A stretch of 26,147 bases of DNA, taken from Eubacteriales Family XIII. Incertae Sedis bacterium (GTDB lineage Bacteria > Bacillota > Clostridia > Peptostreptococcales > Anaerovoracaceae). A program made the position numbers and the translations under genes. The stretch is taken from the NCBI GenBank assembly GCA_031257215.1, contig JAIRPC010000011.1:1-26147 (forward strand), written 5' to 3'. The notes below the pieces were generated by a model. That model searched no databases. It worked only from the letters and a program-made list of their open reading frames with translations, and was not told the DNA's origin. Below are positions 2,497 through 16,046 of the stretch, piece by piece (within the stretch, counting starts at the first letter, position 1; each line of letters opens with the position of its first letter).

Positions 2497-4182
2497 ATGG
2501 AAAACAGATTTTGGGCAAATAGGCGGGGCGAGCTTAGGCTCGCTCGTATCCTTGCGGCGGCACTCGTGGTCGCTCTTGCGCTTGCGCTCGGGTCGTGCAG
2601 CGGCGGAGACAAGGCGCAGGGCGGTGATGGCAGCGCAGGACAGGGCGGTGACGCGGCGGCCGGCGGCACGCAGAATGCCGGTGCGGACGTAGCTGACGGC
2701 GAGCTGGTCATAGGCATCCCAGGGTCGCTTTCGTCGCTCGACGTCAACCAGGAGGCGGGCATCCTGAATTATTATGTGGCCGCCATCGTGAATGAAGGTC
2801 TGGTCAGCATCGGCAACGACGGCAAGGTCATCCCCGCGCTCGCGGAGTCGTGGAGCGACGAGAAAGGCGAGGTCTGGAAGTTCAAGCTGCGCCAGGGCGC
2901 GAAGTTTTCGGATGGCTCGCCCGTGACGGCGGACGATATCATATGGTCTATCGAGCGGGCGCAGGATCCAGAGCGTTCGCCTGGCGTGTCGATATATTTC
3001 CCGGACTATGTTAAGAGCGCGGAGAAAACCGCTGACGATGAGATCACCATCACGCTTGAGGGCTCGCACGGCGGGTTTATCTGGGCGGTGTCCAATTCCG
3101 GCGGGCTTTTTGTCAACAAGAAGGAATGGGGCGAGAAAGCGGAAGCCATCGGTTCGCAGAAAGACTTGCTGCTCGGCAGCGGTCCGTACAAGGCGGTGGA
3201 GTTCGAGCCTGGCTCCCACGCCACATTTGAAGCGTCCGGCACATGGTGGGGCGGAGATGCAAGCATCCCGAAGGTCAGATTCGACTTCATCGAGGACGAT
3301 GCCACGCGCCTGCTCGCGTTCACGCAGGGCGATATAGATTTCGCGCTCAACATTCCCGTAGACCAAGCGGAGCAGTGGGAAAAGGTGGACGGCGCGAAAG
3401 TGGAATACATAGCCGACCGCTCATACTACGGGCTGACCTTCGACCCGAATGTCGAACCCTTTGGCGATGAGCATATCAGGAAAGCTGTCTCATACGCGAT
3501 AAACGCGAAGAGCATAGTGGAGGGAAGCATACTAAAGGGCCGCGGCACGGTGGCTACAGCCATCACTCCGCCAGAGCAGCTCGCCGCCGCGCTGACACTG
3601 GATGCGGCGAAGGAAAAGCTGGGAGGCATCACTCACTACGAATACAGCATTGAAAAGGCGAAAGAGGAATTGGCGCAGTCGAGCCGACCCGATGGGTTTG
3701 AAACCACGCTGTATTATCCGGACACATACCAGAACGCCGGGAAGGCGTCGCTCGTCATCGCCGAGTCTTTGAAAGAGATAGGCATAACGCTGGACGTGAA
3801 AGAGATACCGATCGACCAATGGCTGAACGAGGTCGGCGATGGCAAGCAGGGCGTGGCTTGGATGATATATTTCCCGACCACCGCCGAGCCGGGCGAAATA
3901 GCGGGGTGGCTGCTGGATGCGGAGGGCGCTGGCACGAACCCCGCCAACTGGACTGACGCAGAAGCCGCCAAACTGGCTGCGCGGATACTGGGCGCGGAGT
4001 CCCTCGAAGCCGAAATAGAGCCTACTGTCCAGGCGAACGAAATCGCGCAGAAGCAGGCCATTTATGCCCCGGTGTGGTGGGGTCAGTCAGCCGTGGCATA
4101 CGGCGGTGGCGTGACTGTGGACGGCTACGGGTCGTTCTCGCTCATATCGCAGAACTGGCCACGGCTTTTCTCGCTGGGATGA
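2497..4182 (+). CDS. ABC transporter substrate-binding lipoprotein, family 5 (peptide/nickel; OppA/DppA-like)
   Basis: 561 aa with lipobox LALGS-C, signature VIPALAESW..WKFKLRQGAKFSDGSPVTADD and GSGPYK. Confidence 0.9.
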   Translation: MENRFWANRRGELRLARILAAALVVALALALGSCSGGDKAQGGDGSAGQGGDAAAGGTQNAGADVADGELVIGIPGSLSSLDVNQEAGILNYYVAAIVNEGLVSIGNDGKVIPALAESWSDEKGEVWKFKLRQGAKFSDGSPVTADDIIWSIERAQDPERSPGVSIYFPDYVKSAEKTADDEITITLEGSHGGFIWAVSNSGGLFVNKKEWGEKAEAIGSQKDLLLGSGPYKAVEFEPGSHATFEASGTWWGGDASIPKVRFDFIEDDATRLLAFTQGDIDFALNIPVDQAEQWEKVDGAKVEYIADRSYYGLTFDPNVEPFGDEHIRKAVSYAINAKSIVEGSILKGRGTVATAITPPEQLAAALTLDAAKEKLGGITHYEYSIEKAKEELAQSSRPDGFETTLYYPDTYQNAGKASLVIAESLKEIGITLDVKEIPIDQWLNEVGDGKQGVAWMIYFPTTAEPGEIAGWLLDAEGAGTNPANWTDAEAAKLAARILGAESLEAEIEPTVQANEIAQKQAIYAPVWWGQSAVAYGGGVTVDGYGSFSLISQNWPRLFSLG

Positions 4183-4226
4183 GCCGAGCCAATGCGAAAT
4201 AATTATATGGAATAATTTTCGGGGAA

Positions 4227-5255
4227 TTGTTTGGTATGATAAGGCAGTGGGGTGATGTGAACATTCGCGGAGCGGCTAGGTATATCGCAAAGCGCATAGC
4301 CGAGTTCGCGGTGTCGGTGGTTGCGTTGTCGTTCGTGATATTCTCGTTGCTCTATATCGCGCCCGGCGATCCGGCCAGGTCGCTCGTAGGCACGAGAAAA
4401 GCGACTCCAGAGCTTTTGGCGCGCATTAGGGAGCAGTACCATCTGGACGACCCGTTTCTGTCGCAGTACGGCAGGTGGCTTGAGGGGGCTTTTCATTTTG
4501 ACTTCGGCGAATCCATCAGGTCTGGGGCATCCGTGTCTGACACGATAGCGCCCCATGCGGTGGTCACGTTCGAGCTGGTTCTCATATCGCTCGCGATCAG
4601 CGCGGTGGTCGGCGTGGCCTGCGGCATCGCGGCGGCCAAGGGCAGGGGGAGGTTGCGCGATGGCGCTATCACGGTCGCTGCGCTCGTCGGTACGAGTGCG
4701 CCGAGCTACGCGGCGGGGCTGGTGTTCCTCTATGTGTTCGCTCTGAAGCTTGGCCTGTTCCCTATCTACGGGATAGGGAACGGGAGCGCGGCAGATGAGC
4801 TGTGGCATCTGGCGTTGCCCGCAGTCACCCTGGCCTTCGGCGTGGGTGCGCTTCTCGTGCAGATAACGCGGTCGGCCATGTTGAAAGAAGCGGCGAGCGA
4901 TTACACCGTATTCATGCGGGCTCGGGCGATATCGCCTCTGCGCGTCACGGCAGCGCAGATGAAAAACGCTTCGCCCGCCATCCTGACGAGCGCGGGGCTG
5001 GTGCTGGCGGGGTTGTTCGGATCGACCGTCCTTGTCGAGAGCGTGTTCTCGATACCCGGGCTGGGAAATCTGCTTGCCTCGTCCGTGACGTTCCACGACG
5101 TGCCTGTGGTGCAGGCCATCGCGCTGCTTTTGGCTGTCTTTATCTGCGCCGCATCCACTGCGGTGGATATCTGTGTCTACCTGATAAACCCCTCTTGGGT
5201 GCAGCGGCACGGGGTGAGGTGGAAAGGGGGCCGGCATGAGCGCATCCACGCCTAG
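4227..5255 (+). CDS. ABC transporter permease (DppB/OppB-like); start uncertain (4227 TTG, 4236 ATG or 4257 GTG)
   Basis: PGDPA motif, YHLDDPFLSQYGRWL, DFGES, EAA-loop region 'RSAMLKEAASDYTVFMRARAIS' and hydrophobic TM segments. Confidence 0.88.
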   Translation: MFGMIRQWGDVNIRGAARYIAKRIAEFAVSVVALSFVIFSLLYIAPGDPARSLVGTRKATPELLARIREQYHLDDPFLSQYGRWLEGAFHFDFGESIRSGASVSDTIAPHAVVTFELVLISLAISAVVGVACGIAAAKGRGRLRDGAITVAALVGTSAPSYAAGLVFLYVFALKLGLFPIYGIGNGSAADELWHLALPAVTLAFGVGALLVQITRSAMLKEAASDYTVFMRARAISPLRVTAAQMKNASPAILTSAGLVLAGLFGSTVLVESVFSIPGLGNLLASSVTFHDVPVVQAIALLLAVFICAASTAVDICVYLINPSWVQRHGVRWKGGRHERIHA

Positions 5256-6066
5256 GCTGCGGCAAGGCGCGACGCTGGCCTCGGCGGGATTCTGTATTTC
5301 GCTTGGCATCCTCGCGGTCGTTCTGGCATTTGTCCTGTTCCCCGAAGCTTTTGCGCCGAACGCGCTGGCACAGGATGTGGCGCATGGTGGCCTGCCCGCG
5401 CTCTCCTCAGGCCATCCCCTCGGCACGGATGCCCTAGGGCGTGATGTCTTGAAGCTGCTTATCGCGGGCTCGCGCAGTGCGCTCGCCGGCCCGCTTGCCA
5501 TCGCCGCCGGCTCTATGGCGATAGGGCTTCTGCTAGGTGGGATAGCCGGATGGTACGGCGGCGCGGCAGACTGGATCATATCCAGATACGCGGATCTTAC
5601 GCTGTCCATGCCGTCGCTGCTGCTCGCTATCGTCGCGGCAGGCATCATCGGCGGTGGTTACTGGGTCAGCGTTTTGATAATGGTCATCCTCTATTCGCCG
5701 TTCGACATCAGGCTGGTCAGATCGGCGGTCATGCAACAGAAAGGTATGGCGTACATAGAGTCAGCGCGGCTGCTCGGGCTAGGTGCGCGGCGCATACTGG
5801 TGCGCCACATATTCCCCAATGTGACGCTTGTCATATTTGTGAATTTCTTCCTGAACATAGCGTACGGACTCGTTTCCATGTCCTCTCTATCGTACCTCGG
5901 CCTCGGCGTGTCCCCAGGCGCGGCTGACTGGGGTCGGCAGATATCGGACGGACGCGCGTTGCTGTTCGACAATCCGGCCTGTGCGCTCAGCGCTGGCGCG
6001 GCAATAATAATAACAGCGGTTGCGGTGAATATGGTGGGAAGACAAATAATGGAGAGAAGCCTGTGA
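5236..6066 (+). CDS. ABC transporter permease (DppC/OppC-like)
   Basis: HPLGTDALGRD, EAA motif YIESARLLG, LSYLGLGV..ADWG. Overlaps the upstream permease. Confidence 0.9.
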   Translation: MSASTPRLRQGATLASAGFCISLGILAVVLAFVLFPEAFAPNALAQDVAHGGLPALSSGHPLGTDALGRDVLKLLIAGSRSALAGPLAIAAGSMAIGLLLGGIAGWYGGAADWIISRYADLTLSMPSLLLAIVAAGIIGGGYWVSVLIMVILYSPFDIRLVRSAVMQQKGMAYIESARLLGLGARRILVRHIFPNVTLVIFVNFFLNIAYGLVSMSSLSYLGLGVSPGAADWGRQISDGRALLFDNPACALSAGAAIIITAVAVNMVGRQIMERSL

Positions 6067-7541
6067 TAAATCTGTCGGTGAAAAACTTAAAGGTGGGAAT
6101 TGGCGGTGCTGATATACTGGACGTGCCGGCATTTTGTATCGGAGGCATTGCCGAACATGCGCCGCGCATCGGCATAGTCGGTGAGTCTGGCAGCGGCAAG
6201 ACCATGCTCGTCAGGTCGCTCATGGGCCTGCTGCCGGCTGGCGTATCCGTCAGCGGCAGCTATGCGATAGACGGGATTGGTTTTAGCCTGAACGCCAAGG
6301 AGCGGGAGTGGCGTGGAGTCAGGGGGGCGCGGCTCGGTATGGTCATGCAGGATCCGTTCACGGCGCTTGACCCGCTAAAAAAATGCGGTCGGCAGATATT
6401 GGATGGCGTTCCGAAAAGCTCGCGGGCTTCGTTCGACACGCGGGCCGCTCTCGCCGAGGTCGGGCTTGCGGCGGACATCGCGGGCAGATACCCCCGAGAG
6501 CTTTCGGGCGGGCAGCGGCAGCGCGTGGTCATCGCCGCCGCGCTTGCCACGGAGCCGCAGCTTCTTATCGCGGACGAAGCCACCACCGCGCTTGACGTTA
6601 TTACACAAAAGGGCATACTCGACCTGCTTGACGAAATCAGGGAAAGGCGCTCCATGCCGTTCGTGCTTATCACGCACAATATCAGGCTGGTTTATCAGCG
6701 GACGGATATGCTCATCGTGATGGACGGGGGGCGCATCGTGGAGACTGGCCCGACTCGCGAGGTGATAGCGGATCCGCAGAGCGCATATACCCGCGCACTC
6801 ATCGAGGAGGACAGGCTCCTGCGCGTGAGCGCATACCCCGAATACCGTGTAGGCGGGCCCGTAATACTGAAAGTGCAGAACGTGGAGAAAAGCTTCGGCG
6901 CAGTCAAGGCGCTGCGCCGCGTGGACATAGAGGTATGTGAGGGCGAGATAGTTGGCATAGTCGGCGAGTCGGGCAGCGGCAAGACCACGCTGGCGCGAAT
7001 CGTGGCGGGGCTTGAGAGCGCCGACGGTGGCGATGTGAAATTCTTCGCTGAGGGGACTCCTAAGATCGTGTTCCAGGATCCGTATTCGTCGCTGAACCCC
7101 GCGCACACCGTGCGCTTCGCGATAGAGGAAGCTCTGGCGGCTTTCGGAAGGCCGCTGTCGGAGCTTTCGGAGATAATGGATCTGACCGAGTTGGATGATT
7201 CACTGCTGGATCGCAGGCCCGCAAAGCTATCTGGCGGCCAGCGTCAGCGCGTGGCCATCGCGCGCGCCCTCGCGACTCACCCGAGCCTCATCGTCTTCGA
7301 CGAATCCGTGTCCGCGCTCGACATCGCGACGCAGAACAGGATACTTGGCATGATAGAGCGGCTGCGCGGCGAACGGCAGCTCGCCGTGCTGTTCATCACG
7401 CACGACCTCTCGGTGGTGCGGATGCTCGCGGGCAGGATCTACGTGATGCACGAGGGGCGTATCGTGGATTCAGGCTCGGCCGAGCATATCTTCGAGGATT
7501 CAAAAGCGGGGTACACGAGGGCCTTGGTAAGTGCGTCGTAG
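6063..7541 (+). CDS. ABC transporter ATP-binding protein with two fused NBDs (DppD/F-like)
   Basis: Two Walker A (GESGSGKT), two signatures (LSGGQRQR), two Walker B (LIADE, IVFDE) and two ITH H-loops. Start overlaps the previous stop (GTGA). Confidence 0.92.
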   Translation: MINLSVKNLKVGIGGADILDVPAFCIGGIAEHAPRIGIVGESGSGKTMLVRSLMGLLPAGVSVSGSYAIDGIGFSLNAKEREWRGVRGARLGMVMQDPFTALDPLKKCGRQILDGVPKSSRASFDTRAALAEVGLAADIAGRYPRELSGGQRQRVVIAAALATEPQLLIADEATTALDVITQKGILDLLDEIRERRSMPFVLITHNIRLVYQRTDMLIVMDGGRIVETGPTREVIADPQSAYTRALIEEDRLLRVSAYPEYRVGGPVILKVQNVEKSFGAVKALRRVDIEVCEGEIVGIVGESGSGKTTLARIVAGLESADGGDVKFFAEGTPKIVFQDPYSSLNPAHTVRFAIEEALAAFGRPLSELSEIMDLTELDDSLLDRRPAKLSGGQRQRVAIARALATHPSLIVFDESVSALDIATQNRILGMIERLRGERQLAVLFITHDLSVVRMLAGRIYVMHEGRIVDSGSAEHIFEDSKAGYTRALVSAS

Positions 7542-7629
7542 GTGGCGGCGATTGCCTGCATCGAAGCCGCCGACTCCATTTTTTCGGGCCATTTCCAATA
7601 AACATTAAAAGGAAACTTAAAAAACATGC

Positions 7630-7658
7630 TTGACATATATGCAAACCTGTGATATAAA
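7630..7658 (+). promoter_or_regulatory. sigmaA promoter (copy 1 of a triplicated promoter cassette)
   Basis: TTGACA, 17 bp, TATAAA with extended TG. Sequence TTGACATATATGCAAACCTGTGATATAAA. Confidence 0.8.
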
Positions 7659-7673
7659 TTACTAGAATATATG

Positions 7674-7700
7674 TATAACATATATGTGAAGTATGTTTTG
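7674..7700. promoter_or_regulatory. operator copy (TATAACATA-tatgtgaag-TATGTTTTG)
   Basis: Same half-site and 9-bp spacer as 2396-2422, 15 nt after the -10 box. Confidence 0.7.
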
Positions 7701-7762
7701 CGAGAAAGGGGTTTGCGGATGGCTGTACGAAAATTAGAGATTCCCATATACGGACGATGTAC

Positions 7763-7804
7763 AATCCCGCCGAGCCAGGGCTGATGTCCTGGCGCGGCGG
7801 GTTT
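7763..7804 (+). other. strong GC hairpin in the 5' leader (possible attenuator or terminator)
   Basis: CCCGCCG(7766-72)/CGGCGGG(7795-7801) plus GCCAGG/CCTGGC, followed by TTTGCCGATTTT. Confidence 0.4.
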
Positions 7805-7837
7805 GCCGATTTTGCACAGCCGTCGGCTGACGAAGCA

Positions 7838-7985
7838 AATCAGTTATCGCAGGCGAATAAATAAGAAGGAACGGCTCAACTCCGACATGCAATCAGGTGA
7901 ACCGTTCCAGCGCAGCCCTAAGACCGCATAATCATTATAGCATAATTTTGCTTGTATGCGGTCTCGGGAAAGAAAGGAGAACGAC
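7838..7985 (+). ncRNA. candidate structured cis-regulatory 5' leader, copy A
   Basis: Aligns with 11937-12087 and has two conserved stems with a compensatory change. Not matched by eye to any known riboswitch class. Confidence 0.5.
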
Positions 7986-10900
7986 ATGCAAGCTATTTTT
8001 TCAGAAACCAGAAATAAAAGGGCGCGGATGATAGTGGCGGGCGCACTCACCGTCGCGTTGCTCCTGACCGGCGTGCCGATAGTCGGCTGGCTGGGCGCAC
8101 AGGACGGCTCGGGAGACTCGGCTGTCTACGCGCAGGGTTTGGAGGCGGGCGAAACCAATGACTCCACGCAAGCTGCCGCGGCAGCCAAGACAGAGATAGA
8201 CTATCTGGGAGATACCTATCAGCTGCCTGCCGGCCATGTATTCACTAACATTACGACCGAGCGCCTGAGCTTCCTGCTCGGCTACACTGCCACAAACTCC
8301 GCAAACGCCAACACCGATGCGGCCTACGATCCGAGCGGAAACTACGCGTTCGTGTTCGGTGGTCCCGAGAACGCCAGCTCGCTTGCGGCCGTGCCGCTCA
8401 TAGGCGAGGTCGCGAAGGAGTACGGCGTGGAAACCGTATACCACTACGACCCGAAGCTCGATGGCGATAAGCTCGACATCACGGGCGCGAATCCTGCGGT
8501 GGCGTCTGCATTCACCGACCTGTGGTCCGGCGCGCGCGGCATCAAGACCAGGCTGAAGGGCGGTGTTGACCCTGCGTATACATCGTCCGACACCTATTTC
8601 TTCATCTATAACAAGAACAGGGTGGCGGATACGGACAACGATTCGGATACGCCAGACGTTTCGGCGCCGGTCGTGGCAGGCGTGCTGTCCAAGGCGCAGG
8701 CCATAGGCCAGACGCAGGCGATTAATTACAAGCAGAATATAGCCGCGGCGTTCGAAGCGGCGGGCGTCGATCCCGTGACGAACAAGGCCAACGTGAAGAC
8801 CTATCCGTTCTTCGATTATTTCAAGACTAGGATAAACGCAGTCGTCGGCTCGCCAACGACATACGCAAATGTGATAATACCCGAATCGGCCCGCGAAACT
8901 TTTGCCATACAGACCGTGACGCTGCCCGAGCTGTTCCATATCTTCGAGAGCGAGGGCGACTACGCGATTTTCCTCGGCGGCACATGGTGCCCGTACACGA
9001 GCCCCACGGACAACATCGCCAACACCGCGGCGGTGACGAATGGTGTCCGCAAGGTCTACCAGTTCGATCTGCGGCTTGACGGCGCGACATCGGCCACGGG
9101 CCTGAAGACCGTGTTCAAGTCCGGCGATACAGAAGCCGAAGACCCGCGCATCAACGGAAATACAGTAGTGGAAGGCAGTCATCTGTATGGAAAACTGCTC
9201 GACTATCTCTCAAATCTGGAACTGGAGCCTGGCGTTGTCGAATACCTCTATTACCCGAACGGCGACACATCGAAGCCGGTGAGCGAGAAGAAAGCCGCAA
9301 AGAACATCGGCGTGCCATTCTTGTTCGAGTACAACAAGGACAACAAAGCCGCGGATGGCACAGCCGCGCCCGTGGCCAGCGAATGGATAGGCTATAAGCC
9401 GCTGAAAAAAGAGCTGTACGCATATGCCTGGTACACGAAGAACAATGTGCGTGACTACTTGAACGATGCGGGATATTACGAGAAGCAGCTGGGCCGCCCC
9501 GTGAATCCCGATGTGGATGATACCGAGGGCAACGGCGCGGTAAGCGCTTCGCTCGCGCTGCCGGGGCTCTACACGTTCTTTGATGGACTGAACAGAAACC
9601 GCACGGATTCCGACCCATGGGCGGAAAACCCGGGCGCCAGGCCAAGCCCGTCGGGTACGCCCGAACCGAGCGGCGGCTGTGGCTCGGATGTAAAGGAAAT
9701 CCTCCTCGGAGTCGAGAATCCGATTCTTGGCCAGAACGGCAACGACGGTTACGATGTCCAGCACTACGATATCGATGCCGCATACAAGGAAGCTCTGAAC
9801 GCCACTCCGTCCGCGTTGCGCGCGAACCTGCACGCGGAAACGAAGATAACGGCGAAGGCCACGAAGAGCCTCAGCAAGATAGAGTTCGACTTCCGCGCCG
9901 ACGCTGACCGCGCAGATGTGGGCAGCGTGAAGCTGAACGGTGTCGATGTAGACAAGGCGGCGGTGACGTCCGTCAGCGACGATGCGGCCGACAGGCACAA
10001 GCTCGTCATAACGCCCGAGACCGCCATCGCAAGCGGCAGCACGTTCACGGTGGATATTGTTTATTGGGTGAAAACCGGCACATACAAATTCAATGGCGCT
10101 TCCACGCAGGGATTTGTGCCTAGTGCGAACGGCACGGGCGCAACCGCGCTCGGCGAGCCGAACGGAGCCACCTTCTGGTTTCCATCCAACAACAATACAA
10201 CGGACAGAGCCACGTACACCATCTCGCTGACCGCGCCTCGAAATCTTGTCGGCGTCAGCGTCGGAAATCTGATATCCAAGCAGTCGCACGGCTCGGATAT
10301 CACGAGGGTCTGGGAGCAGACGCAACCCACGATACCATACCTGGTCGATGCGTCGTTTGGCGACTATATCGAGTTCAGCGACGAGATAGAGCTGATAGAC
10401 GGGACGAAGATACCCGCCTACGGCTACGTGGACAAATCCCTCTATAACAGCAGCAACACGAATAAGCGGCGGGCATATTGGTACGCGAAGGACTTGCAGG
10501 AGTACATCAACTGGGCCGAGAGCCATTTCGGAAAATACCCGGGCGAATCGGCGGGCTTCGTGTTCGAAAACCTGAAGGACGGCGATGACGGCGTGGGCTA
10601 CAGCCTTGAGACTGTCGGGCGCCCGTATTACAGCGGCATTCCGGCTACGTCAACCTTCGTACACGAGCAGCTGCACCAGTGGTTCGGCGACTCGGTGACC
10701 ATCGCGAAATGGGAAGACCTGTGGCTGAACGAGGGCTTCGCGTCGTTCCTGTCCAACATATGGTTCGAGGAAAACGGCGTGCGCCCGAGCGGTTTCGGCG
10801 CCGGCACTACCACGAACGACTGGTATGCAAGATGGTACGAGGACAACAAGGATTCGGATTTCTGGTATATCGCGCCGGCTGATCCGATAAACGCCGCCAA

Positions 10901-11732
10901 CCTGTTCACTGACATCACCTATGGGCGCGGGAGTTATGCGCTCGCGGCGTTGCGCGTGGCGGTGGGAGATGAAGATTTCTTTAACATTGTCAAGACCTGG
11001 GCGGATGAGCAGGCAGGAAAGGCCGCGACCACCGCGCAGTTCATTGAGACCGCGAAGCGCGTGTCGGGTGTCGAGCAAACCGCGCTGGACACGTTGCTGC
11101 AAAGGTATATCTACGACCAGTACAAGCCTGAGAGCTTCCCCGCAGGGCGGCTGCCTGACGCGCCGACAGAGCCTGGCGACGACCAGACTGGCACAGACGA
11201 CGACAAGGTGGGCGATAAGCAGCAGGTTTCCGCCAAGTCCATAGGCGGCGCACGGATAGCGGCGATCGCCAACCAGATCTACAAGGGCAAGGCTATCAGG
11301 CCCGCAGTCAGCGTTGCTCTGGACGGAACTATTCTCGCGCCCGCTGAATACACCGTGTCATACAAGTCCAATACGGGCATCGGGCTGGCATCCGTCACGG
11401 TCACGGGCAAGGGCGCGTACAAGGACAGCGTGACCGCAACATTCAAGATACTGCCCGCCAAGGCGAAATTCAAGAGCGCGAAGGCTGGCAAGGGCAGGGT
11501 GGCGCTGAAATGGTCGAAAGCCAAGGGTGTAACGAAGCAGCAGATACAGTATCGGATCAAGGGCAAGCCATGGAATACCAAAACGGTTTCGGGCGCGACG
11601 GCATCCAAGGCCATCAGCAAGCTGAAAAAGGGCAAGACATACCAGTTCCGCGTCCGCGGGTACAAGGCCACATCCGGGCTCAAATACTTCGCGTCATGGA
11701 GCAGCATTAAAACGGTAAAGGTGAAAAAATAA
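7986..11732 (+). CDS. secreted multidomain protein: tandem thioredoxin-like region + M1 family Zn aminopeptidase + Ig/MBG-like + FN3-like C-terminal modules
   Basis: RBS AAAGGAG before ATG 7986 (the ORF track start at 7956 is upstream of the RBS). Signal peptide, GGTWCPYT, HEQLHQWFG-x-WLNEGFAS (HExxH-x18-E), catalytic-Tyr region TYGRG, Lys-rich FN3-like tail KWSKAKG..YQFRVRGYK. Confidence 0.85.
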   Translation: MQAIFSETRNKRARMIVAGALTVALLLTGVPIVGWLGAQDGSGDSAVYAQGLEAGETNDSTQAAAAAKTEIDYLGDTYQLPAGHVFTNITTERLSFLLGYTATNSANANTDAAYDPSGNYAFVFGGPENASSLAAVPLIGEVAKEYGVETVYHYDPKLDGDKLDITGANPAVASAFTDLWSGARGIKTRLKGGVDPAYTSSDTYFFIYNKNRVADTDNDSDTPDVSAPVVAGVLSKAQAIGQTQAINYKQNIAAAFEAAGVDPVTNKANVKTYPFFDYFKTRINAVVGSPTTYANVIIPESARETFAIQTVTLPELFHIFESEGDYAIFLGGTWCPYTSPTDNIANTAAVTNGVRKVYQFDLRLDGATSATGLKTVFKSGDTEAEDPRINGNTVVEGSHLYGKLLDYLSNLELEPGVVEYLYYPNGDTSKPVSEKKAAKNIGVPFLFEYNKDNKAADGTAAPVASEWIGYKPLKKELYAYAWYTKNNVRDYLNDAGYYEKQLGRPVNPDVDDTEGNGAVSASLALPGLYTFFDGLNRNRTDSDPWAENPGARPSPSGTPEPSGGCGSDVKEILLGVENPILGQNGNDGYDVQHYDIDAAYKEALNATPSALRANLHAETKITAKATKSLSKIEFDFRADADRADVGSVKLNGVDVDKAAVTSVSDDAADRHKLVITPETAIASGSTFTVDIVYWVKTGTYKFNGASTQGFVPSANGTGATALGEPNGATFWFPSNNNTTDRATYTISLTAPRNLVGVSVGNLISKQSHGSDITRVWEQTQPTIPYLVDASFGDYIEFSDEIELIDGTKIPAYGYVDKSLYNSSNTNKRRAYWYAKDLQEYINWAESHFGKYPGESAGFVFENLKDGDDGVGYSLETVGRPYYSGIPATSTFVHEQLHQWFGDSVTIAKWEDLWLNEGFASFLSNIWFEENGVRPSGFGAGTTTNDWYARWYEDNKDSDFWYIAPADPINAANLFTDITYGRGSYALAALRVAVGDEDFFNIVKTWADEQAGKAATTAQFIETAKRVSGVEQTALDTLLQRYIYDQYKPESFPAGRLPDAPTEPGDDQTGTDDDKVGDKQQVSAKSIGGARIAAIANQIYKGKAIRPAVSVALDGTILAPAEYTVSYKSNTGIGLASVTVTGKGAYKDSVTATFKILPAKAKFKSAKAGKGRVALKWSKAKGVTKQQIQYRIKGKPWNTKTVSGATASKAISKLKKGKTYQFRVRGYKATSGLKYFASWSSIKTVKVKK
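11214..11732 (+). repeat. C-terminal module duplicated collinearly at 15265-15783
   Basis: Both copies are 519 nt with no indels. The core 11367-11567 vs 15418-15618 encodes 64/67 identical residues. Confidence 0.85.
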
Positions 11733-11784
11733 TGAAAAACAGGAAATAAATACAGCGGCATGAAAACCTGGCCTGCACACCCAC

Positions 11785-11813
11785 TTGACATATATGCGAA
11801 CCTGTGATATAAA
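11785..11813 (+). promoter_or_regulatory. sigmaA promoter (cassette copy 2)
   Basis: TTGACATATATGCGAACCTGTGATATAAA, one mismatch to copy 1. Confidence 0.8.
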
Positions 11814-11832
11814 ATAACGGAAAGGTATCTTG

Positions 11833-11859
11833 TATCACATATATGTTAAGTATGTATTA
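11833..11859. promoter_or_regulatory. operator copy (TATCACATA-tatgttaag-TATGTATTA)
   Basis: Same motif and spacing, 19 nt after the -10 box. Confidence 0.7.
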
Positions 11860-11936
11860 TGGAAAGGGTGGTTCGGTTATGCGATGTTTTTTATCAATCG
11901 GTTATAGCTGACGGGTAGTCAGACAGACGGACAGTC

Positions 11937-12087
11937 AATCAGTTGTCGCAGGCAGATCAAACAAATAGGGAACGGCTCAACCCCGACGTGCAATCAGTGT
12001 GAGCCGCTCCGCCGCAGCCCGTGGGCCGCATACATATTATAGCATAATTCGGCTTGTATGCGGCTTCGGGAAAGAAAGGAGAACGAC
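11937..12087 (+). ncRNA. candidate structured cis-regulatory 5' leader, copy B
   Basis: Homologous to 7838-7985. Stems GGA(A)CGGCTCA/TGAGCCG(C)TCC and GGGCCGCATAC/GTATGCGGCTT. Confidence 0.5.
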
Positions 12088-15000
12088 ATGCAGGCTATTT
12101 TTATTGGAAGAAAGAGGGTTAGGGCGCTGCTCGCCTCCGCGCTGGCTTTGGCGCTGGCTGTTACCGGCATATTCGCCGCCGCGCCGTCGGCTTCGGCAGC
12201 CAGCCCCGCAGCACCGCAGGCTTCGGCAGAGGGTGCCGCTGGGGCTTCGGCCGCGCCGTCGGAGGATTATTCCCCGTCCAGCACCACGGACTATATCGCC
12301 GCCAAATTCGACGGGATCAGCGCGAACGCGCACGTGTTCGACGTTGTGACGGTGGAGCGGCTGACCAAGGGCGTGCTCGGGCAGGACGGCAACAGCGTCG
12401 TGGTGCTCGGCAGCCCGAAGAACGACAGCACGAAGAAATCGCTGCGCTATATCAATGACGTGGCGCAGGCCTGGGGCATCGAGAAGATCTATTTCTTTGA
12501 CCCGAACCTCGCGGGCGAGGCGGGCGCGGACATCACGGACGCGTCGACGGGCGCACCCTATGCGGCGCGGACGGACAGCCCGAACAACCGCATCTGGGCG
12601 GCTCTGAAAACCGCCGTCACCACCGGCACGGACAATCTCAGGGGCGCGCGCTTGAAGCATATACCCGCGGGTTACACCTCCGACCAGACGCTCCTGTTCG
12701 TGTATAACAGGAAGCCGTCTGGCGCTATCGTGGACAGCGCGGACACTATCGTGTCGAGCCTGCTCATACCCGGCGCGGTGGACGTGGGCAGCACGGCCGC
12801 GCAGAACGCTTTGAAGTCCGATATAGCGGCGGTGTTTTCCGCTGTTCCCGGCTGGACATCGGGGAACACAGGCGAAACCTTCTACGACCAATACTGGTGG
12901 TTTCGGAATGTCTGGACGTACTCCTCGGGCAGCATTGACGGAATAACACAGAGCAAATTCACGGTGAGGCAGGTCACCCAGCCTGAGCTGGTGAACGTGC
13001 TGAACACGCCGGGCACGCACAATGTGTTCATCAGCGGCTCCTGGTGCGGGGACTCGCGGGCACTCACGGCATATCTGGCGGAGAACGCCAGCAAGGCGAA
13101 CGAGCCTGTCTATGTGTTCGACTTCCGCGTCAGCGGCGGCATCGGCGACAGCTCCGCCTATTCCGTGCTGCGCTCAGAGGCACCCACCTCCGATGGCGGC
13201 TATGGCTACACGGGGCTGGGCTTTATCGGCGCTCGGCTCGTGGATCTGTTCGCGCCGTTTGAAAGCGGCACGGTGAACACGGTTTCCAAATACTATCCGA
13301 ACGGCGACAGCTCGGCGCAGCTGGCCACTAGCCCGAACCGCAATTTCCGTTCGCCATTCCTCGTGAAATACCAGAAAGGCAATAACAGCAGCAAGGGGAG
13401 CGTTGTTAAGGAATGGGTACACCAGACGCAGGAATGGGAAGCGCCGTGGAAGTCCGCCGCAGGATATGAGGGCGGGCAGCTCCCAGGCACCTACCTGGAC
13501 TACGAGGTGGCTACGGGAGGCACGAACCAGCTCCAAAACGCGAGGGCTCGTTATGCCCTGGCGGAATTTTTCGGGCAGCCTAGCGTGCATAGCCTCAGCG
13601 GTTATTCGCCGTCAAGCACCGTGGGCACGAATGTCAGCAAGAGCGACAGCGGCTGTGGAGACGACAACGACCCGCTCGACGATCTCGGCGAGAGCAGGCT
13701 CATCCCGAACCAGGGCACGTCGGACTATGATGTCCAGAGCTACGACATAGCCATCGACGCGTCGAGCATTGCGGCGTCCTCGGACGATGTCGATTTCATC
13801 AAGGGCGCAACGACCGTTACCGCTATCGCGAAGAAGGGCCTTTCGCATATCGAGCTGGACTTCAAGCCGCTTGCGGTGAACGGCGGGGAGCTGCGGGTCA
13901 ATGTGGGCAGCATAGACGAGAGCGGCGCGTTCGTGGCGTCGGGCTCGCGCACCGTTACGCATTTTTCGCAGGCGAGCAATGACGCTGAGGATTTGCAGAA
14001 GCTGGCGCTCGACGTGAACTCGCCTATCGCGAGCGGCACGCCGTTCCAGATATTTGTTTCATACACCACGGGGCTGCTCGACACGTTTGTCGGCAACGGC
14101 GAATCGCCGCAGGGCTTCTTTTCGCGAATCGACGAGGGAGGGATCGCCGCTATCGGCGAGCCGCTCGGCGCCATCTACTGGTTCCCGAACAACAACACGC
14201 CCGCCGACGGCGCGAAATACGCGATCACTCTGAAATACCCGTCAGGCTACGAGGGCGTCGCGCCGGGCGTCCGCACATCCAGGAGCGGCACCCAGTCCGT
14301 GTGGAAGGTCAACAGGGATATCGCGTCGTACCAGGCGTTCGCGTCGATAGGGAAATACACCATAGTCGGCGGCACGGGCAATAACTATCTGTCAATAACA
14401 GCGCCTACGGCGTACACGCAAACCGTGAACAACGGCAACAACCCCGACAATTTGGACGAGAAGAAAATCAACAAGGCCATCCCGTACTACAATTACGTCA
14501 ACAGCACGATCTACGCCGCGAACGCCAGCCGCAACCGCGACAAGGCCGACGCGTTCACGCACGAGCTGCCGCTGTATATCCGCGCGCTTGAAAGCATCGC
14601 GGGCCCATACCCCGGCGAGGCGGCGGGGTTCGTCTTTGACAACCTGGGGGATGGCCACGGCTCGCCCGCCTCGTGGGGCGCGGTCGAAACGGCTGACCGC
14701 CCGTTCTTCACGGGCACGAATATCACGAGCGAACGCACCTTTGTACACGAGTACGCGCACCAGTGGTACGGCGATGCGGTCCGCATAGCGGGCTGGGAAG
14801 ACCTCTGGCTGAACGAGGGCTTCGCCACCTATGTTACCGACCTGTATTACGAGCAGAAGCCCGGCTCGGAGTTTTCCGCGCAGGAGAAATGGGAGAATGT
14901 CTACAACAGCACCGCCGCGAACAAGCCGTGGTGGGGCTACGCGCCCGCGAAGATCGAGACTGAGGGCGATCTGTTCGGCGGGGCTTCCGCCGCGTACAAC

Positions 15001-15783
15001 AGGGGTGCGCTCGCCCTCGCCGCCCTGCGCGCCGAGATAGGTGACGCGAAATTCCTGAAAATCCTGAAAGACTGGCCGACGGAGAAAAAAGGGCAGGCGG
15101 TAACTACGGCTGACTTCGTGGCGTTTGCCGCCGCCAGCGCGGGGCAGGACCTGACCGACTGGGCGGACGCGTGGCTCTACGGGCAGGCGAAGCCCGCCGC
15201 GTTCATAACGAGCGATATCCCGAAGGATCCAGGCAAGGGCGACGACAAGCCAGGCGGCAATGATGACAAGCAGCAGATCACAGCGAAGTCCATCTCCGGC
15301 GCGAGGATAGCCGCTATCAAAGACCAGATCTATAATGGCAAGGCGGCCATCCCCGCTGTCAAGGTCACGCTGAACGGCGCGGCGCTCACGGCGGCCGACT
15401 ATGCGCTGACGTACCGCTCCAACACGGGCATAGGGCTGGCGTCCGTCACGGCTACGGGCAAGGGCGCGTACAAGGACAGCGTGACCGCGACGTTCAAGAT
15501 ACTGCCCGCCAAGGCGAAGCTCAAGAGCGCGAAGGCCGGCAAGGGCAGGGTGACGCTGAAATGGTCGAAAGCCAAGGGCGTCACGAAGCAGCAGATCCAG
15601 TACCGCATCAAGGGCAAGGCGTGGAAGAGCATAACGGTTTCAGGCGCGGCGGTGTCCAAGGTAGTGAAGAAGCTGAAAAAGGGCAAGACCTACCAGTTCC
15701 GCATCCGGGGCTACAAGAAGGCCGGAAGCGAGAAATACCAAGCGGCATGGAGCGGCATCAAGACGGTGAAGGTGAGGAAGTAA
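12088..15783 (+). CDS. secreted multidomain protein: tandem thioredoxin-like region + M1 family Zn aminopeptidase + Ig/MBG-like + FN3-like modules (paralogue of 7986..11732)
   Basis: RBS AAAGGAG before ATG 12088. Signal peptide, SGSWCGDS, HEYAHQWYG..WLNEGFAT, AYNRG and the same C-terminal modules. Confidence 0.85.
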   Translation: MQAIFIGRKRVRALLASALALALAVTGIFAAAPSASAASPAAPQASAEGAAGASAAPSEDYSPSSTTDYIAAKFDGISANAHVFDVVTVERLTKGVLGQDGNSVVVLGSPKNDSTKKSLRYINDVAQAWGIEKIYFFDPNLAGEAGADITDASTGAPYAARTDSPNNRIWAALKTAVTTGTDNLRGARLKHIPAGYTSDQTLLFVYNRKPSGAIVDSADTIVSSLLIPGAVDVGSTAAQNALKSDIAAVFSAVPGWTSGNTGETFYDQYWWFRNVWTYSSGSIDGITQSKFTVRQVTQPELVNVLNTPGTHNVFISGSWCGDSRALTAYLAENASKANEPVYVFDFRVSGGIGDSSAYSVLRSEAPTSDGGYGYTGLGFIGARLVDLFAPFESGTVNTVSKYYPNGDSSAQLATSPNRNFRSPFLVKYQKGNNSSKGSVVKEWVHQTQEWEAPWKSAAGYEGGQLPGTYLDYEVATGGTNQLQNARARYALAEFFGQPSVHSLSGYSPSSTVGTNVSKSDSGCGDDNDPLDDLGESRLIPNQGTSDYDVQSYDIAIDASSIAASSDDVDFIKGATTVTAIAKKGLSHIELDFKPLAVNGGELRVNVGSIDESGAFVASGSRTVTHFSQASNDAEDLQKLALDVNSPIASGTPFQIFVSYTTGLLDTFVGNGESPQGFFSRIDEGGIAAIGEPLGAIYWFPNNNTPADGAKYAITLKYPSGYEGVAPGVRTSRSGTQSVWKVNRDIASYQAFASIGKYTIVGGTGNNYLSITAPTAYTQTVNNGNNPDNLDEKKINKAIPYYNYVNSTIYAANASRNRDKADAFTHELPLYIRALESIAGPYPGEAAGFVFDNLGDGHGSPASWGAVETADRPFFTGTNITSERTFVHEYAHQWYGDAVRIAGWEDLWLNEGFATYVTDLYYEQKPGSEFSAQEKWENVYNSTAANKPWWGYAPAKIETEGDLFGGASAAYNRGALALAALRAEIGDAKFLKILKDWPTEKKGQAVTTADFVAFAAASAGQDLTDWADAWLYGQAKPAAFITSDIPKDPGKGDDKPGGNDDKQQITAKSISGARIAAIKDQIYNGKAAIPAVKVTLNGAALTAADYALTYRSNTGIGLASVTATGKGAYKDSVTATFKILPAKAKLKSAKAGKGRVTLKWSKAKGVTKQQIQYRIKGKAWKSITVSGAAVSKVVKKLKKGKTYQFRIRGYKKAGSEKYQAAWSGIKTVKVRK

Positions 15784-15940: not shown

Positions 15941-15973
15941 TCGGAAAAAATTTTAATTATTTTCATAACATTC

Positions 15974-16002
15974 TTGACATATATGCGAACCTGTGATATA
16001 AA
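15974..16002 (+). promoter_or_regulatory. sigmaA promoter (cassette copy 3)
   Basis: TTGACATATATGCGAACCTGTGATATAAA, identical to copy 2. Confidence 0.8.
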
Positions 16003-16019
16003 TATCATTGAAGTTCGTA

Positions 16020-16046
16020 TATAACATATATGCGAAGTATGTATTA
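16020..16046. promoter_or_regulatory. operator copy (TATAACATA-tatgcgaag-TATGTATTA)
   Basis: Same motif, 17 nt after the -10 box and adjacent to RBS GAGGAG. Confidence 0.7.

Follow-up and report, generated by a model that had tools for sequence, protein, structure and literature searches.

A conserved leader element with a predicted cis-antisense RNA before secreted peptidase and transporter genes in a Family XIII lineage of Clostridia

Promoters, operators and leaders in the window

The window, by which we mean the whole stretch of 26,147 nucleotides that was analyzed, carries two aminopeptidase genes, A and B, whose leaders (7838-7985 and 11937-12087) are 82% identical, although the proteins encoded behind them share only 37% identity. 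The plus-strand promoter of gene A (7630-7658) consists of a -35 box, TTGACA (7630-7635), a 17-nt spacer and a TGn-extended -10 box, TATAAA (7650-7658), and is conserved in three copies in the window. The promoter of gene B (11785-11813, plus strand) is a duplicate of it, while the third copy, before the gene at 16061 (gene C), lacks the leader, as a previous sequence-only reading of this DNA had stated. Two CATATATG palindromes (7634-7641 and 7679-7686, together spanning 7634-7687) bracket the gene A promoter and presumably serve as its operator. Equivalent palindromes are found at the B and C promoters, and another (2396-2419) lies before a peptide ABC transporter operon.

Downstream of the gene A promoter, a plus-strand uORF of 21 codons (7719-7784) has its own Shine-Dalgarno sequence (SD), encodes a Tyr-x-Arg-Cys-Thr-Ile-Pro stretch and ends with a UGA stop. 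Its end is overlapped by a GC-rich hairpin (7766-7814, plus strand), seen in the sequence and in the minimum free energy (MFE) fold, which is followed by a weak U-rich run and fails the terminator scan; in the related copies G106 and G175, hairpins of other sequence are found at this place.

The conserved leader itself contains, in order, a stem 1, a small hairpin and a stem 2. In copy A, stem 1 (7868-7908, plus strand) comprises 11 base pairs with one C.A mismatch, around an open loop of 19 nt; its counterpart in copy B lies at 11969-12010, and each copy has a single mismatch, at differing positions. Stem 2 spans 7916-7968 in copy A (plus strand, -22.0 kcal/mol) and 12018-12070 in copy B (-26.6 kcal/mol), where an A:T pair is replaced by G:C and where two changes yield G.U pairs on the sense strand. 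It ends directly before the SD in both copies and leaves it free in copy A. The single mismatches of stem 1, the base changes in stem 2 and its end before the SD, as well as the alignment of the two leaders over ~150 nt, had been described in the sequence-only reading and were recovered here from the sequence, the alignment also by BLAST.

Copies in related genera

BLAST of the source assembly, which is 58% complete, returned exactly two copies of the element (82% identity over 148 nt, E = 3.6e-36). The statement of the sequence-only reading that the leader is shared only by the two aminopeptidase genes thus holds within this incomplete genome; among relatives it does not, as the element is found there before a gene-C-like protein and before a Bmp-type ABC transporter operon as well. 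The homologue search that the same reading had proposed as a check, performed here with covariance models and pattern searches, yielded nine copies across six genera of a single family (a Family XIII Eubacteriales MAG lineage). Seven of them precede genes for related secreted proteins, namely M1 peptidase fusions and a related protein, one precedes the Bmp-type operon and one is situated at a contig end. The layout is the same in all nine, with an AT-rich palindromic operator at the sense promoter followed by stem 1, the small hairpin and stem 2, such that the palindromes accompany every copy of the element in the other genera as well. When G000 and G004 are compared, the element is 90% identical, versus 76% at the fourfold-degenerate sites of the adjacent gene.

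The Rfam check suggested in the same place was also performed. With Rfam 15 at gathering thresholds, the whole window, searched on both strands, gave no hits, with riboswitches, T-box, known countertranscript RNAs (ctRNAs) and leaders being included in the search, and scans by E-value, covering 7600-8000 as well as the G136 and G175 loci, returned only chance-level hits, none of them on the element. The proposal of a candidate new cis-regulatory RNA is therefore upheld insofar as the element is conserved and structured, matches no Rfam family, is represented by homologues in other genera and has undergone compensatory changes. It is not upheld for a sensor of the riboswitch type acting on the sense strand, as discussed below.

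A pair of similar leaders in one genome could also be a neutral and functionless by-product of a recent duplication, or of gene conversion of the gene ends. Indeed, gene conversion acts at this locus, as the last ~130 codons of A and B are 87% identical in DNA; the third-position identity among identical residues is about 0.8 in these homogenized 3' ends and about 0.5 across most of the gene. Furthermore, copy B is a secondary insertion, and in the congener G004, gene B directly follows gene A with neither a promoter nor a leader between them. However, the sequence from promoter to element is not conserved between A and B, the element with its compensatory changes is found in other genera before genes that are only 34-49% identical, and it also precedes the Bmp-type operon, which encodes different proteins. 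A neutral origin is thus extremely improbable and, for practical purposes, is refuted by the cross-genus copies; on these sequence comparisons, the similarity of the two leaders is more than a residue of duplication.

Strand asymmetry of the conserved core

Across the copies, 93.5% of the cells of stem 1 are paired and five of its 11 pairs change on both sides, a number reached in only four of 500 shuffles, although it should be noted that the nine copies include three close relatives and are thus not independent, such that these covariation statistics are weak. The seven internal non-standard pairs of stem 1 are all A.C on the sense strand and hence G.U on the antisense strand, and the same is true for the four non-standard pairs of the small hairpin in the g1 copies. 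In all nine copies, the antisense hairpin is more stable than the sense hairpin (means of -19.6 versus -12.0 kcal/mol), and in most copies it closes to a loop of 4-5 nt. The 12 nt following the hairpin contain, on average, 7.1 U on the antisense strand versus 1.4 on the sense strand.

When read on the minus strand, the core of copy A predicts an antisense RNA at 7858-7927 (MFE of -32.8 kcal/mol, z = -4.79, with none of 200 shuffles folding as well). It would begin with a 6-bp 5' hairpin complementary to 7912-7927, continue with a long terminator hairpin opposite 7868-7908 and end in a U-rich tail opposite 7858-7867, with U at nine of the 12 nt after the terminator hairpin. The RNA predicted for copy B (11959-12029, minus strand; MFE of -37.6 kcal/mol, z = -4.14) has its terminator hairpin in the complement of 11969-12010. 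Such predicted RNAs always present one two-hairpin shape, with z between -4.1 and -6.2 in the eight of eight copies considered.

A putative minus-strand -10 box, TGnTATAAT, is positioned 25 nt upstream of the antisense hairpin in both copy A (7934-7942) and copy B (12036-12044). A TATAAT-type box is found 23-29 nt upstream of this hairpin in eight of the nine copies, in six genera, and four of these eight boxes carry the TGn extension; the exception is G136, where the box is at 34 nt rather than at about 25. The hexamer is TATAAT in six copies, TACAAT in two and TATACT in one, while the sequence of stem 2 around it is unrelated between genera. If transcription is taken to begin about 7 nt past the box, then in all copies checked the first part of the predicted RNA is complementary to the 5' arm of stem 2. 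No convincing -35 box was found for the antisense promoters, the best match being four of six positions, in G165. The consensus scanner reported neither an antisense promoter nor an antisense terminator, and even the obvious sense promoter of gene A escapes its rules, which demand a T at position 6 of the -10 box.

The resemblance of the antisense hairpin to an intrinsic terminator, together with the poor -35 elements, would also suit an insulator, in which a minus-strand hairpin and U tract merely stop stray antisense transcription from entering the sense promoter, with no antisense RNA gene and no RNA-RNA regulation, and with stem 2 and its alternatives being independent. We consider this improbable, as such an insulator leaves unexplained the conserved -10 hexamer at 23-29 nt in eight of nine copies, the conserved 5' hairpin between box and terminator, and the constant place of the element immediately before the antiterminator arm; nor is there a downstream minus-strand gene that requires termination.

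A second alternative places the function on the sense strand, where the loop of stem 1 would bind a protein, a small molecule or an RNA and so choose between stem 2 and its alternative helices, with the small hairpin acting as an anti-antiterminator stabilized by the bound factor, comparable to PyrR-type control. The loop core CACCGCAAAA is conserved in the short-loop copies, the combination of one conserved domain with expression platforms that differ by genus is riboswitch-like, and, as would suit a three-state switch, one and the same segment forms the 3' arm of the small hairpin and the 5' arm of stem 2. The sense segment that holds stem 1 is, moreover, significantly structured in four copies, G106, G175, G165 and C98 (z = -3.3 to -4.1), and on this folding evidence stem 1 may have a role on the sense strand as well. 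Over all copies tested, however, z ranges from +0.17 to -4.1, and in the window copies the segment folds no better than shuffled sequence (z = -0.91 for A and +0.17 for B). Stem 1 and the small hairpin form perfectly only on the antisense strand, their sense versions being imperfect; the element has no Rfam match, and no conserved loop-loop or pseudoknot pairing or multi-helix junction was found in it. Sense-strand sensing also gives no reason for the loop of stem 2 to contain an exact ATTATA, for stem 1 to be preceded on its 5' side by an A-rich tract, or for their spacing to be fixed. This alternative is thus rather unlikely. As the antisense strand is structured, as the A.C/G.U asymmetry favors it, and as a U-rich tail is found there together with a conserved -10 box whose distance is fixed, the conserved core is more likely to be an antisense RNA gene together with its target.

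Alternative helices and the proposed switch

Stem 2 competes with other helices. In copy A, an alternative helix at 7950-7993 (plus strand) joins the 3' half of stem 2 to the SD at 7975-7979 and to the start codon at 7986-7988; this helix reaches -18.7 kcal/mol when folded alone and is part of the MFE structure predicted for the full leader. In copy B (12018-12096, plus strand, for both structures), the corresponding helix at 12050-12096 (-18.4 kcal/mol) sequesters the SD (12077-12081) and the ATG at 12088. These SD/AUG helices range from -18.4 to -19.6 kcal/mol in A, B and G004, and stem 2 presents an A:U to G:C compensatory change between copy A and G004. In G106, G004:C98 and G136, the 3' arm of stem 2 doubles as the 5' arm of a hairpin that is followed by a U run (-14.9, -13.3 and -11.3 kcal/mol, respectively), such that a mutually exclusive antiterminator and terminator are present in these three copies, whereas in the window copies this arm has the SD and AUG as its other partner. 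G175 has an SD-sequestering helix that does not obviously depend on stem 2.

Before turning to the antisense RNA, the uORF should be considered, as a ribosome that translates or stalls on Tyr-x-Arg-Cys-Thr-Leu/Ile-Pro might steer these hairpins, through leader-peptide attenuation or as an arrest peptide, with stems 1 and 2 being only the read-out. uORFs with an SD and the shared motif are found in A and, at the equivalent place, in G004, G106 and G175; the uORF is truncated in B (11879-11911) and weaker in G290. The Tyr, Thr, Leu/Ile and Pro codons vary synonymously, five of the six uORFs end with UGA, and the stop codons of G106 and G175 lie inside the 5' base of stem 1. There is also a parallel in pepNL, an arrest-peptide uORF before Escherichia coli pepN (PMC11890864), which is, as here, a short UGA-ended uORF upstream of a gene for an M1-family aminopeptidase; the two are unrelated in sequence and a third of the copies here lack the uORF, and we regard the parallel as no more than an analogy. 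Leader-peptide attenuation calls for a translated uORF in all members, overlapping the first alternative helix. However, G136, G165 and G004:C98 have no uORF and yet keep stem 1 and a stem 2 with a terminator, and where a uORF is present, it lies anywhere from 0 to about 80 nt away from stem 1. Furthermore, no nucleotide changes are seen in the Arg and Cys codons, which is compatible with an RNA or DNA constraint, and there is a single Cys codon rather than a run of regulatory codons. A sensor role for the uORF is thus highly improbable.

From the conservation, covariation, strand asymmetry and alternative helices described above, we infer that an antisense RNA is made and acts on the leader, and we lean, with moderate confidence, towards a switch in which this cis-antisense RNA of ~70 nt pairs with the 5' arm of stem 2 and thereby frees the 3' arm, either for a terminator (in relatives) or for sequestration of the SD and AUG (in the window). 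The conserved block would then form a small cassette whose regulatory action involves both strands. An RNA of ~65-70 nt would be transcribed from a minus-strand -10 box of the TATAAT type within the stem 2 loop, and the long hairpin and U-rich tail of this RNA would be its own intrinsic terminator; stem 1, an imperfect mirror image of that hairpin in the mRNA leader, is the presumed antisense target. By pairing with the nascent leader, in copy A with 7916-7927, the 5' end of the antisense RNA would block stem 2 and leave its 3' arm free. For genes A and B, this arm would take the SD and start codon, and translation would be blocked; in G106, G004:C98 and G136, it would pair with the downstream segment ahead of the U run, and transcription would terminate. 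When the antisense RNA is absent, stem 2 would form and the gene would be expressed. Repression would then have two layers, the palindromic operator at the sense promoter and the antisense RNA.

Apart from the pepNL analogy, the closest known systems are plasmid-borne. In pT181, pIP501 and pAMbeta1, replication genes are controlled by countertranscript-driven transcriptional attenuation (PMC2879508, PMC4981023). As in those systems, a small antisense RNA, here predicted, is encoded in cis opposite a leader with a mutually exclusive antiterminator (preemptor) and intrinsic terminator, and would be able to pair with the 5' partner of the antiterminator. Judged by sequence and folding, this exact layout is that of the G106, G004:C98 and G136 copies. 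Unlike them, the element resembles no ctRNA family in sequence or in Rfam, is chromosomal, and precedes genes for secreted proteins and an ABC transporter operon rather than a replication initiator gene, while the predicted read-out in the window is sequestration of the SD and AUG rather than a terminator. RNAII of pMV158, also a very small RNA, carries a 5' tail of about 17-19 nt before its single terminator hairpin, and its 3' end is rich in U. It inhibits the downstream gene at the level of translation and works alongside CopG, a transcriptional repressor at the operator of the sense promoter (PMC4485353). The same two-layer logic would pair the predicted antisense RNA with the CATATATG operator, but the RNAII stem has 8 bp whereas that of the element has about 16, the 5' tail is here folded into a hairpin of its own, and the two systems have different target genes and host lineages and share no similarity in sequence. 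For a gene other than one of replication, RnaG of Shigella icsA, a cis-antisense RNA from a convergent promoter, drives the leader into a terminator by pairing (PMC2879508), as is proposed for the element. RnaG differs in its length (about 450 nt), in its Gram-negative virulence plasmid, in also acting by transcriptional interference and in having no alternative translational platform.

Why chromosomal peptidase and transporter genes should be under countertranscript control is a matter of conjecture. We nonetheless suggest, more tentatively than for the switch itself and from comparison of the copies, that the element could represent a previously undescribed family of chromosomal countertranscript switches in a lineage of Family XIII (Clostridia), in which a ~70-nt antisense module with its own promoter and terminator lies in leaders that precede genes for nutrient acquisition, those of secreted peptidases and of a Bmp ABC transporter, is coupled, depending on the genus, to a terminator or to an SD/AUG helix, and is always combined with a palindromic operator. 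Such a cassette could be copied before new genes, as before gene B. If true, this would mean that the two-layer copy control of plasmids has been reused for the regulation of chromosomal genes.

Leader copies, promoters and upstream reading frames

Both copies of the element lie within 5' untranslated regions, one of gene A (ATG 7986) and one of gene B (ATG 12088), whose secreted products of 1,248 and 1,231 residues each carry an M1 peptidase domain; an Opp/Dpp-type peptide ABC transporter operon (2497-7541) precedes the two genes. The sequence-only reading had aligned 7838-7985 with 11937-12087, and this alignment was recovered with 82% identity over 148 nt (E = 3.6e-36), as were stem 1 (7868-7908 and 11969-12010), stem 2 (7916-7968 and 12018-12070), the mismatches and the compensatory change that it described. 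The promoter of the third gene, gene C (at 16061), indeed lacks the leader, and no Rfam family matched the element on either strand at gathering or permissive thresholds. The further claim, that only the two aminopeptidase genes carry the leader, holds for the window's own assembly, where two copies were counted in 1.1 Mb that are 58% complete, but not for its relatives, in which copies also precede Bmp/PnrA and gene-C-like genes.

Genes A, B and C each have a strong promoter (TTGACA, 17 nt, TGnTATAAA) bracketed by CATATATG palindromes, at 7630-7687, 11785-11848 and 15967-16045, respectively, as recognized from the sequence. A related palindrome site (2396-2419) lies ahead of the peptide ABC transporter operon, and equivalent palindromes are found beside every element copy in five other genera. 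These palindromes look like a predicted repressor operator that would control a peptide-utilisation regulon.

Between the promoter and the element of gene A there is an upstream open reading frame (uORF) of 21 codons with its own SD and a Tyr-x-Arg-Cys-Thr-Ile-Pro stretch (7719-7784). The stretch recurs in three relatives' genomes (G004, G106 and G175), is truncated in copy B (11879-11911) and is weaker in a fourth, G290. Across the leaders (loci L124, L120, L012 and L169, and the window) the motif reads Tyr-x-Arg-Cys-Thr-Leu/Ile-Pro, with invariant CGA and TGT codons. The uORF varies synonymously at several codons, ends on UGA in five of six cases and may encode a regulatory leader peptide, as a further control layer; its likeness to E. 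coli pepNL/pepN is an analogy only (PMC11890864). Control based on the uORF as the explanation of the whole leader is very improbable in our estimate, the frame being present in six of the nine leaders known and missing from three. A GC-rich 14-bp hairpin that overlaps the last part of the uORF and has a weak U-rich run behind it (7766-7814) may act as a translation-sensitive pause or weak terminator; hairpins of other sequence stand at this position in G106 and G175.

Distribution and conservation of the element

A search with protein A in 300 genomes of the family found orthologues in G136, G175 and G106 at 34-49% identity. Upstream of each, a sigma-70-type promoter flanked by AT-rich palindromes of the CATATATG kind is followed by a hairpin collinear with stem 1 and then by more hairpins. 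A covariance-model search of relatives, which the sequence-only reading had proposed, was carried out with model R2, built from five stem 1 sequences, and gave two additional copies. One is on a second contig (C98) of G004, a congener (35 bits, E = 1e-6), and precedes genes for a substrate-binding protein of the Bmp/PnrA type and for the ABC ATPase and permease that go with it, while the other, in G165, stands ahead of a protein 35% identical to gene C. A search with a degenerate stem pattern gave a ninth copy, which lies at a contig end in G290. The element thus totals nine copies in seven genomes of six genera, and its distribution is narrow.

Model R3 (E <= 0.001) found no copy in 132 genomes drawn from 11 further families of the order, and model searches of the whole genomes G000 (the window's own assembly), G004, G106 and G175 gave no additional credible copy. 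The copy in G136 was missed by R2 genome-wide and recovered by a further model, R1, in a small search only (E = 0.004). Most of the weak R2 matches in the family proved to be terminators of the ordinary kind or palindromes resembling REP elements. With a strict loop pattern there were 15 matches, three of them real, against six in the control. The exact stem 2 loop pattern was found among species genomes in G004 only and had no match in metagenome contigs, where a protein-based scan returned merely distant generic M1 peptidases (22-37% identity); the closest metagenomic protein homologues (P0003-P0010) have 46-69% identity. As all the genomes involved are metagenome-assembled (MAGs) and several are 58-78% complete, absences of the element mean little. 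Two further genera of the family contain long perfect palindromes that have a GGGGACGGTTCTA unit as their building block and are repeated nearby (L154 in G152:C131 and L158 in G150:C64); these look like REP-type repeats unrelated to the element.

In a seven-sequence alignment, 93.5% of the stem 1 pairs are standard, and five of the 11 pairs show two-sided changes, a number equalled in four of 500 shuffles; all slid registers of the alignment collapse. Because the sample is small and partly related, this covariation should be taken as support for the stem, not as proof. Between the window's assembly and G004 the element is 90% identical, as compared to 76% for the fourfold-degenerate sites of gene A (566 sites). 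We find it barely conceivable that the leader is a neutral relic.

Strand asymmetry and alternative folds

The internal non-standard pairs of stem 1 (seven cells: one each in A, B, G106 and the G004 copies on contigs C39 and C98, two in G290) are all C.A or A.C on the sense strand, as are the four mismatch cells of the small hairpin in a group of three copies (g1), and all of these become G.U on the opposite strand. When stem 1 is folded alone, the antisense version is the stabler one in all nine copies (mean -19.6 versus -12.0 kcal/mol), and what is an 18-19-nt loop on the sense strand closes, in most copies, through G.U pairs to 4-5 nt in its antisense counterpart. The 12 nt past the hairpin contain on average 7.1 U on the antisense strand and 1.4 on the sense strand. 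A plain terminator on the antisense strand could be read from this hairpin and its U tail, an explanation that we judge improbable. An ATTATA in the loop of stem 2 is TATAAT on the minus strand. This candidate -10 box is exact in six copies, extended to TGnTATAAT in the three g1 copies, TACAAT in G165 and G136, and TATACT with a TGn extension in G290. From its end to the antisense hairpin there are 23-29 nt in eight of nine copies and 34 nt in G136, and the stem 2 sequence around it is unrelated between genera.

Predicted antisense transcripts of eight copies were folded from about 7 nt after the box through 10 nt past the hairpin. All eight have the same shape, in which a short hairpin at the 5' end is followed by a long one and then by a U tail; their z scores are -4.1 to -6.2, and none of 200 shuffles reaches the same stability. 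For these bases read on the sense strand, the z scores are -0.91 and +0.17 in the window copies and -1.1 to -4.1 elsewhere. In G004, four tandem units of about 21-24 nt (L012 1655-1760, contig C39, minus strand) form an insertion directly upstream of the element, in this genome only; they are akin to the CAGTTATCGCAG segment ahead of stem 1, and they lie just past the predicted 3' end of the antisense RNA.

In copy B, stem 2 includes two pairs that are G.U on the sense strand, and stem 2 is therefore a sense-strand structure. In eight of nine copies, the 5' arm of stem 2 is also used by the small hairpin between the stems. In G106 and the C98 copy of G004, the 3' arm of stem 2 doubles as the 5' arm of a second hairpin, behind which there are six or seven U; stem 2 has -12.5 and -13.4 kcal/mol, and this alternative terminator -14.9 and -13.3 kcal/mol, respectively. 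G136 follows the same logic in unrelated sequence. Copies A and B and the G004 orthologue have no terminator; there, the SD and start codon are the alternative pairing partners of the 3' half of stem 2, in a helix of -18.4 to -19.6 kcal/mol as compared to -22 to -28 kcal/mol for stem 2.

The simplest account of all these features, which we favor with moderate confidence, would be an antisense RNA, encoded in cis and about 65-70 nt long, that attenuates the leader. In the window it would run on the minus strand from near 7927 to near 7858-7862 for copy A, with its predicted -10 at 7934-7939 touching neither arm of stem 2, and from 12029 to about 11960 for copy B. The predicted 5' end could base-pair with the 5' arm of stem 2, and by pairing with the nascent leader the RNA would block stem 2 from forming, leaving the 3' arm to enter the terminator (G106, C98 and G136) or the SD/AUG helix (window). 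Against this account stand the poor -35 elements of the predicted antisense promoters, the small sample, and a sense segment that is also well structured in four copies. A sense-strand leader that binds a protein or ligand is an unlikely alternative to antisense attenuation, with this structured sense segment to be set beside the strand of the stem 1 mismatches.

Several other candidates were rejected: a T-box (the UGGN bulge and any Rfam match are absent), a K-turn (stem 1 lacks tandem G.A pairs), a conserved kissing interaction of the stem 1 and stem 2 loops (the complementary segments vary from copy to copy), a small ORF from an AUG in the stem 1 loop (frame and length vary), an anti-SD role of that loop (it fits some copies only), an internal sense promoter at ATTATA (poor hexamers) and a coding role of the antisense RNA (no SD or conserved ORF).

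History of the cassette and its meaning

Taken alone, the similarity of the two leaders is little proof that they are not simply left over from a duplication. The identity between proteins A and B is 37%, and third-codon-position identity at identical residues is about 0.5, i.e., saturated, across most of the gene, climbing to about 0.8 over the last 130 or so codons. This rise indicates that gene conversion, or recent exchange of a C-terminal Ig/fn3-like module, probably operates at the A/B locus. The gene ends themselves (11340-11732 and 15390-15783) show 85% identity at the protein level and 87% at the DNA level.

The G004 MAG, also of Eubacteriales Family XIII Incertae Sedis, has the gene order A-B-C of the window with a single promoter and a single leader, ahead of gene A and 91% identical to copy A. 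The start of gene B there directly adjoins the gene A stop codon, gene C lacks a promoter, and the three genes form one operon with one promoter (window 11733-11784 compared with L021 4990-5060). In the window, a decayed remnant of the former B start codon and signal peptide lies just past the gene A stop, and behind it comes an inserted cassette that contains a promoter, a leader and new first codons for gene B. Given this remnant and insertion, copy B is a secondary copy of a regulatory cassette that was copied within the locus. A promoter has also been inserted before gene C in the window genome, as compared with G004.

Attenuation driven by antisense RNA is a textbook mechanism of plasmid copy control. 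To our knowledge, demonstrations for ordinary genes of the chromosome are rare, the usual example being RnaG/icsA. The proposed antisense/stem 2 logic is that of the countertranscript-driven attenuation of pT181, pIP501 and pAMbeta1, reviewed together with RnaG/icsA, a precedent outside replication genes (PMC2879508). The same logic underlies the way in which RNAII of pMV158 inhibits translation; this RNA, too, is tiny, consists of a 5' tail, a single hairpin and a U tail, and acts beside an operator-binding repressor (PMC4485353).

For the discovery of RNA motifs, the lesson is that the strand on which mismatches are G.U rather than A.C can reverse the reading of a "structured leader". If the proposal is true, operator, antisense RNA and switchable leader would form a conserved compact cassette and a new RNA family, a small portable repression module and a natural case of expression platforms swapped modularly around an antisense sensor. 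The cassette would then have two kinds of read-out and stand ahead of genes for secreted peptidases and for transporters in uncultured anaerobes of the gut.
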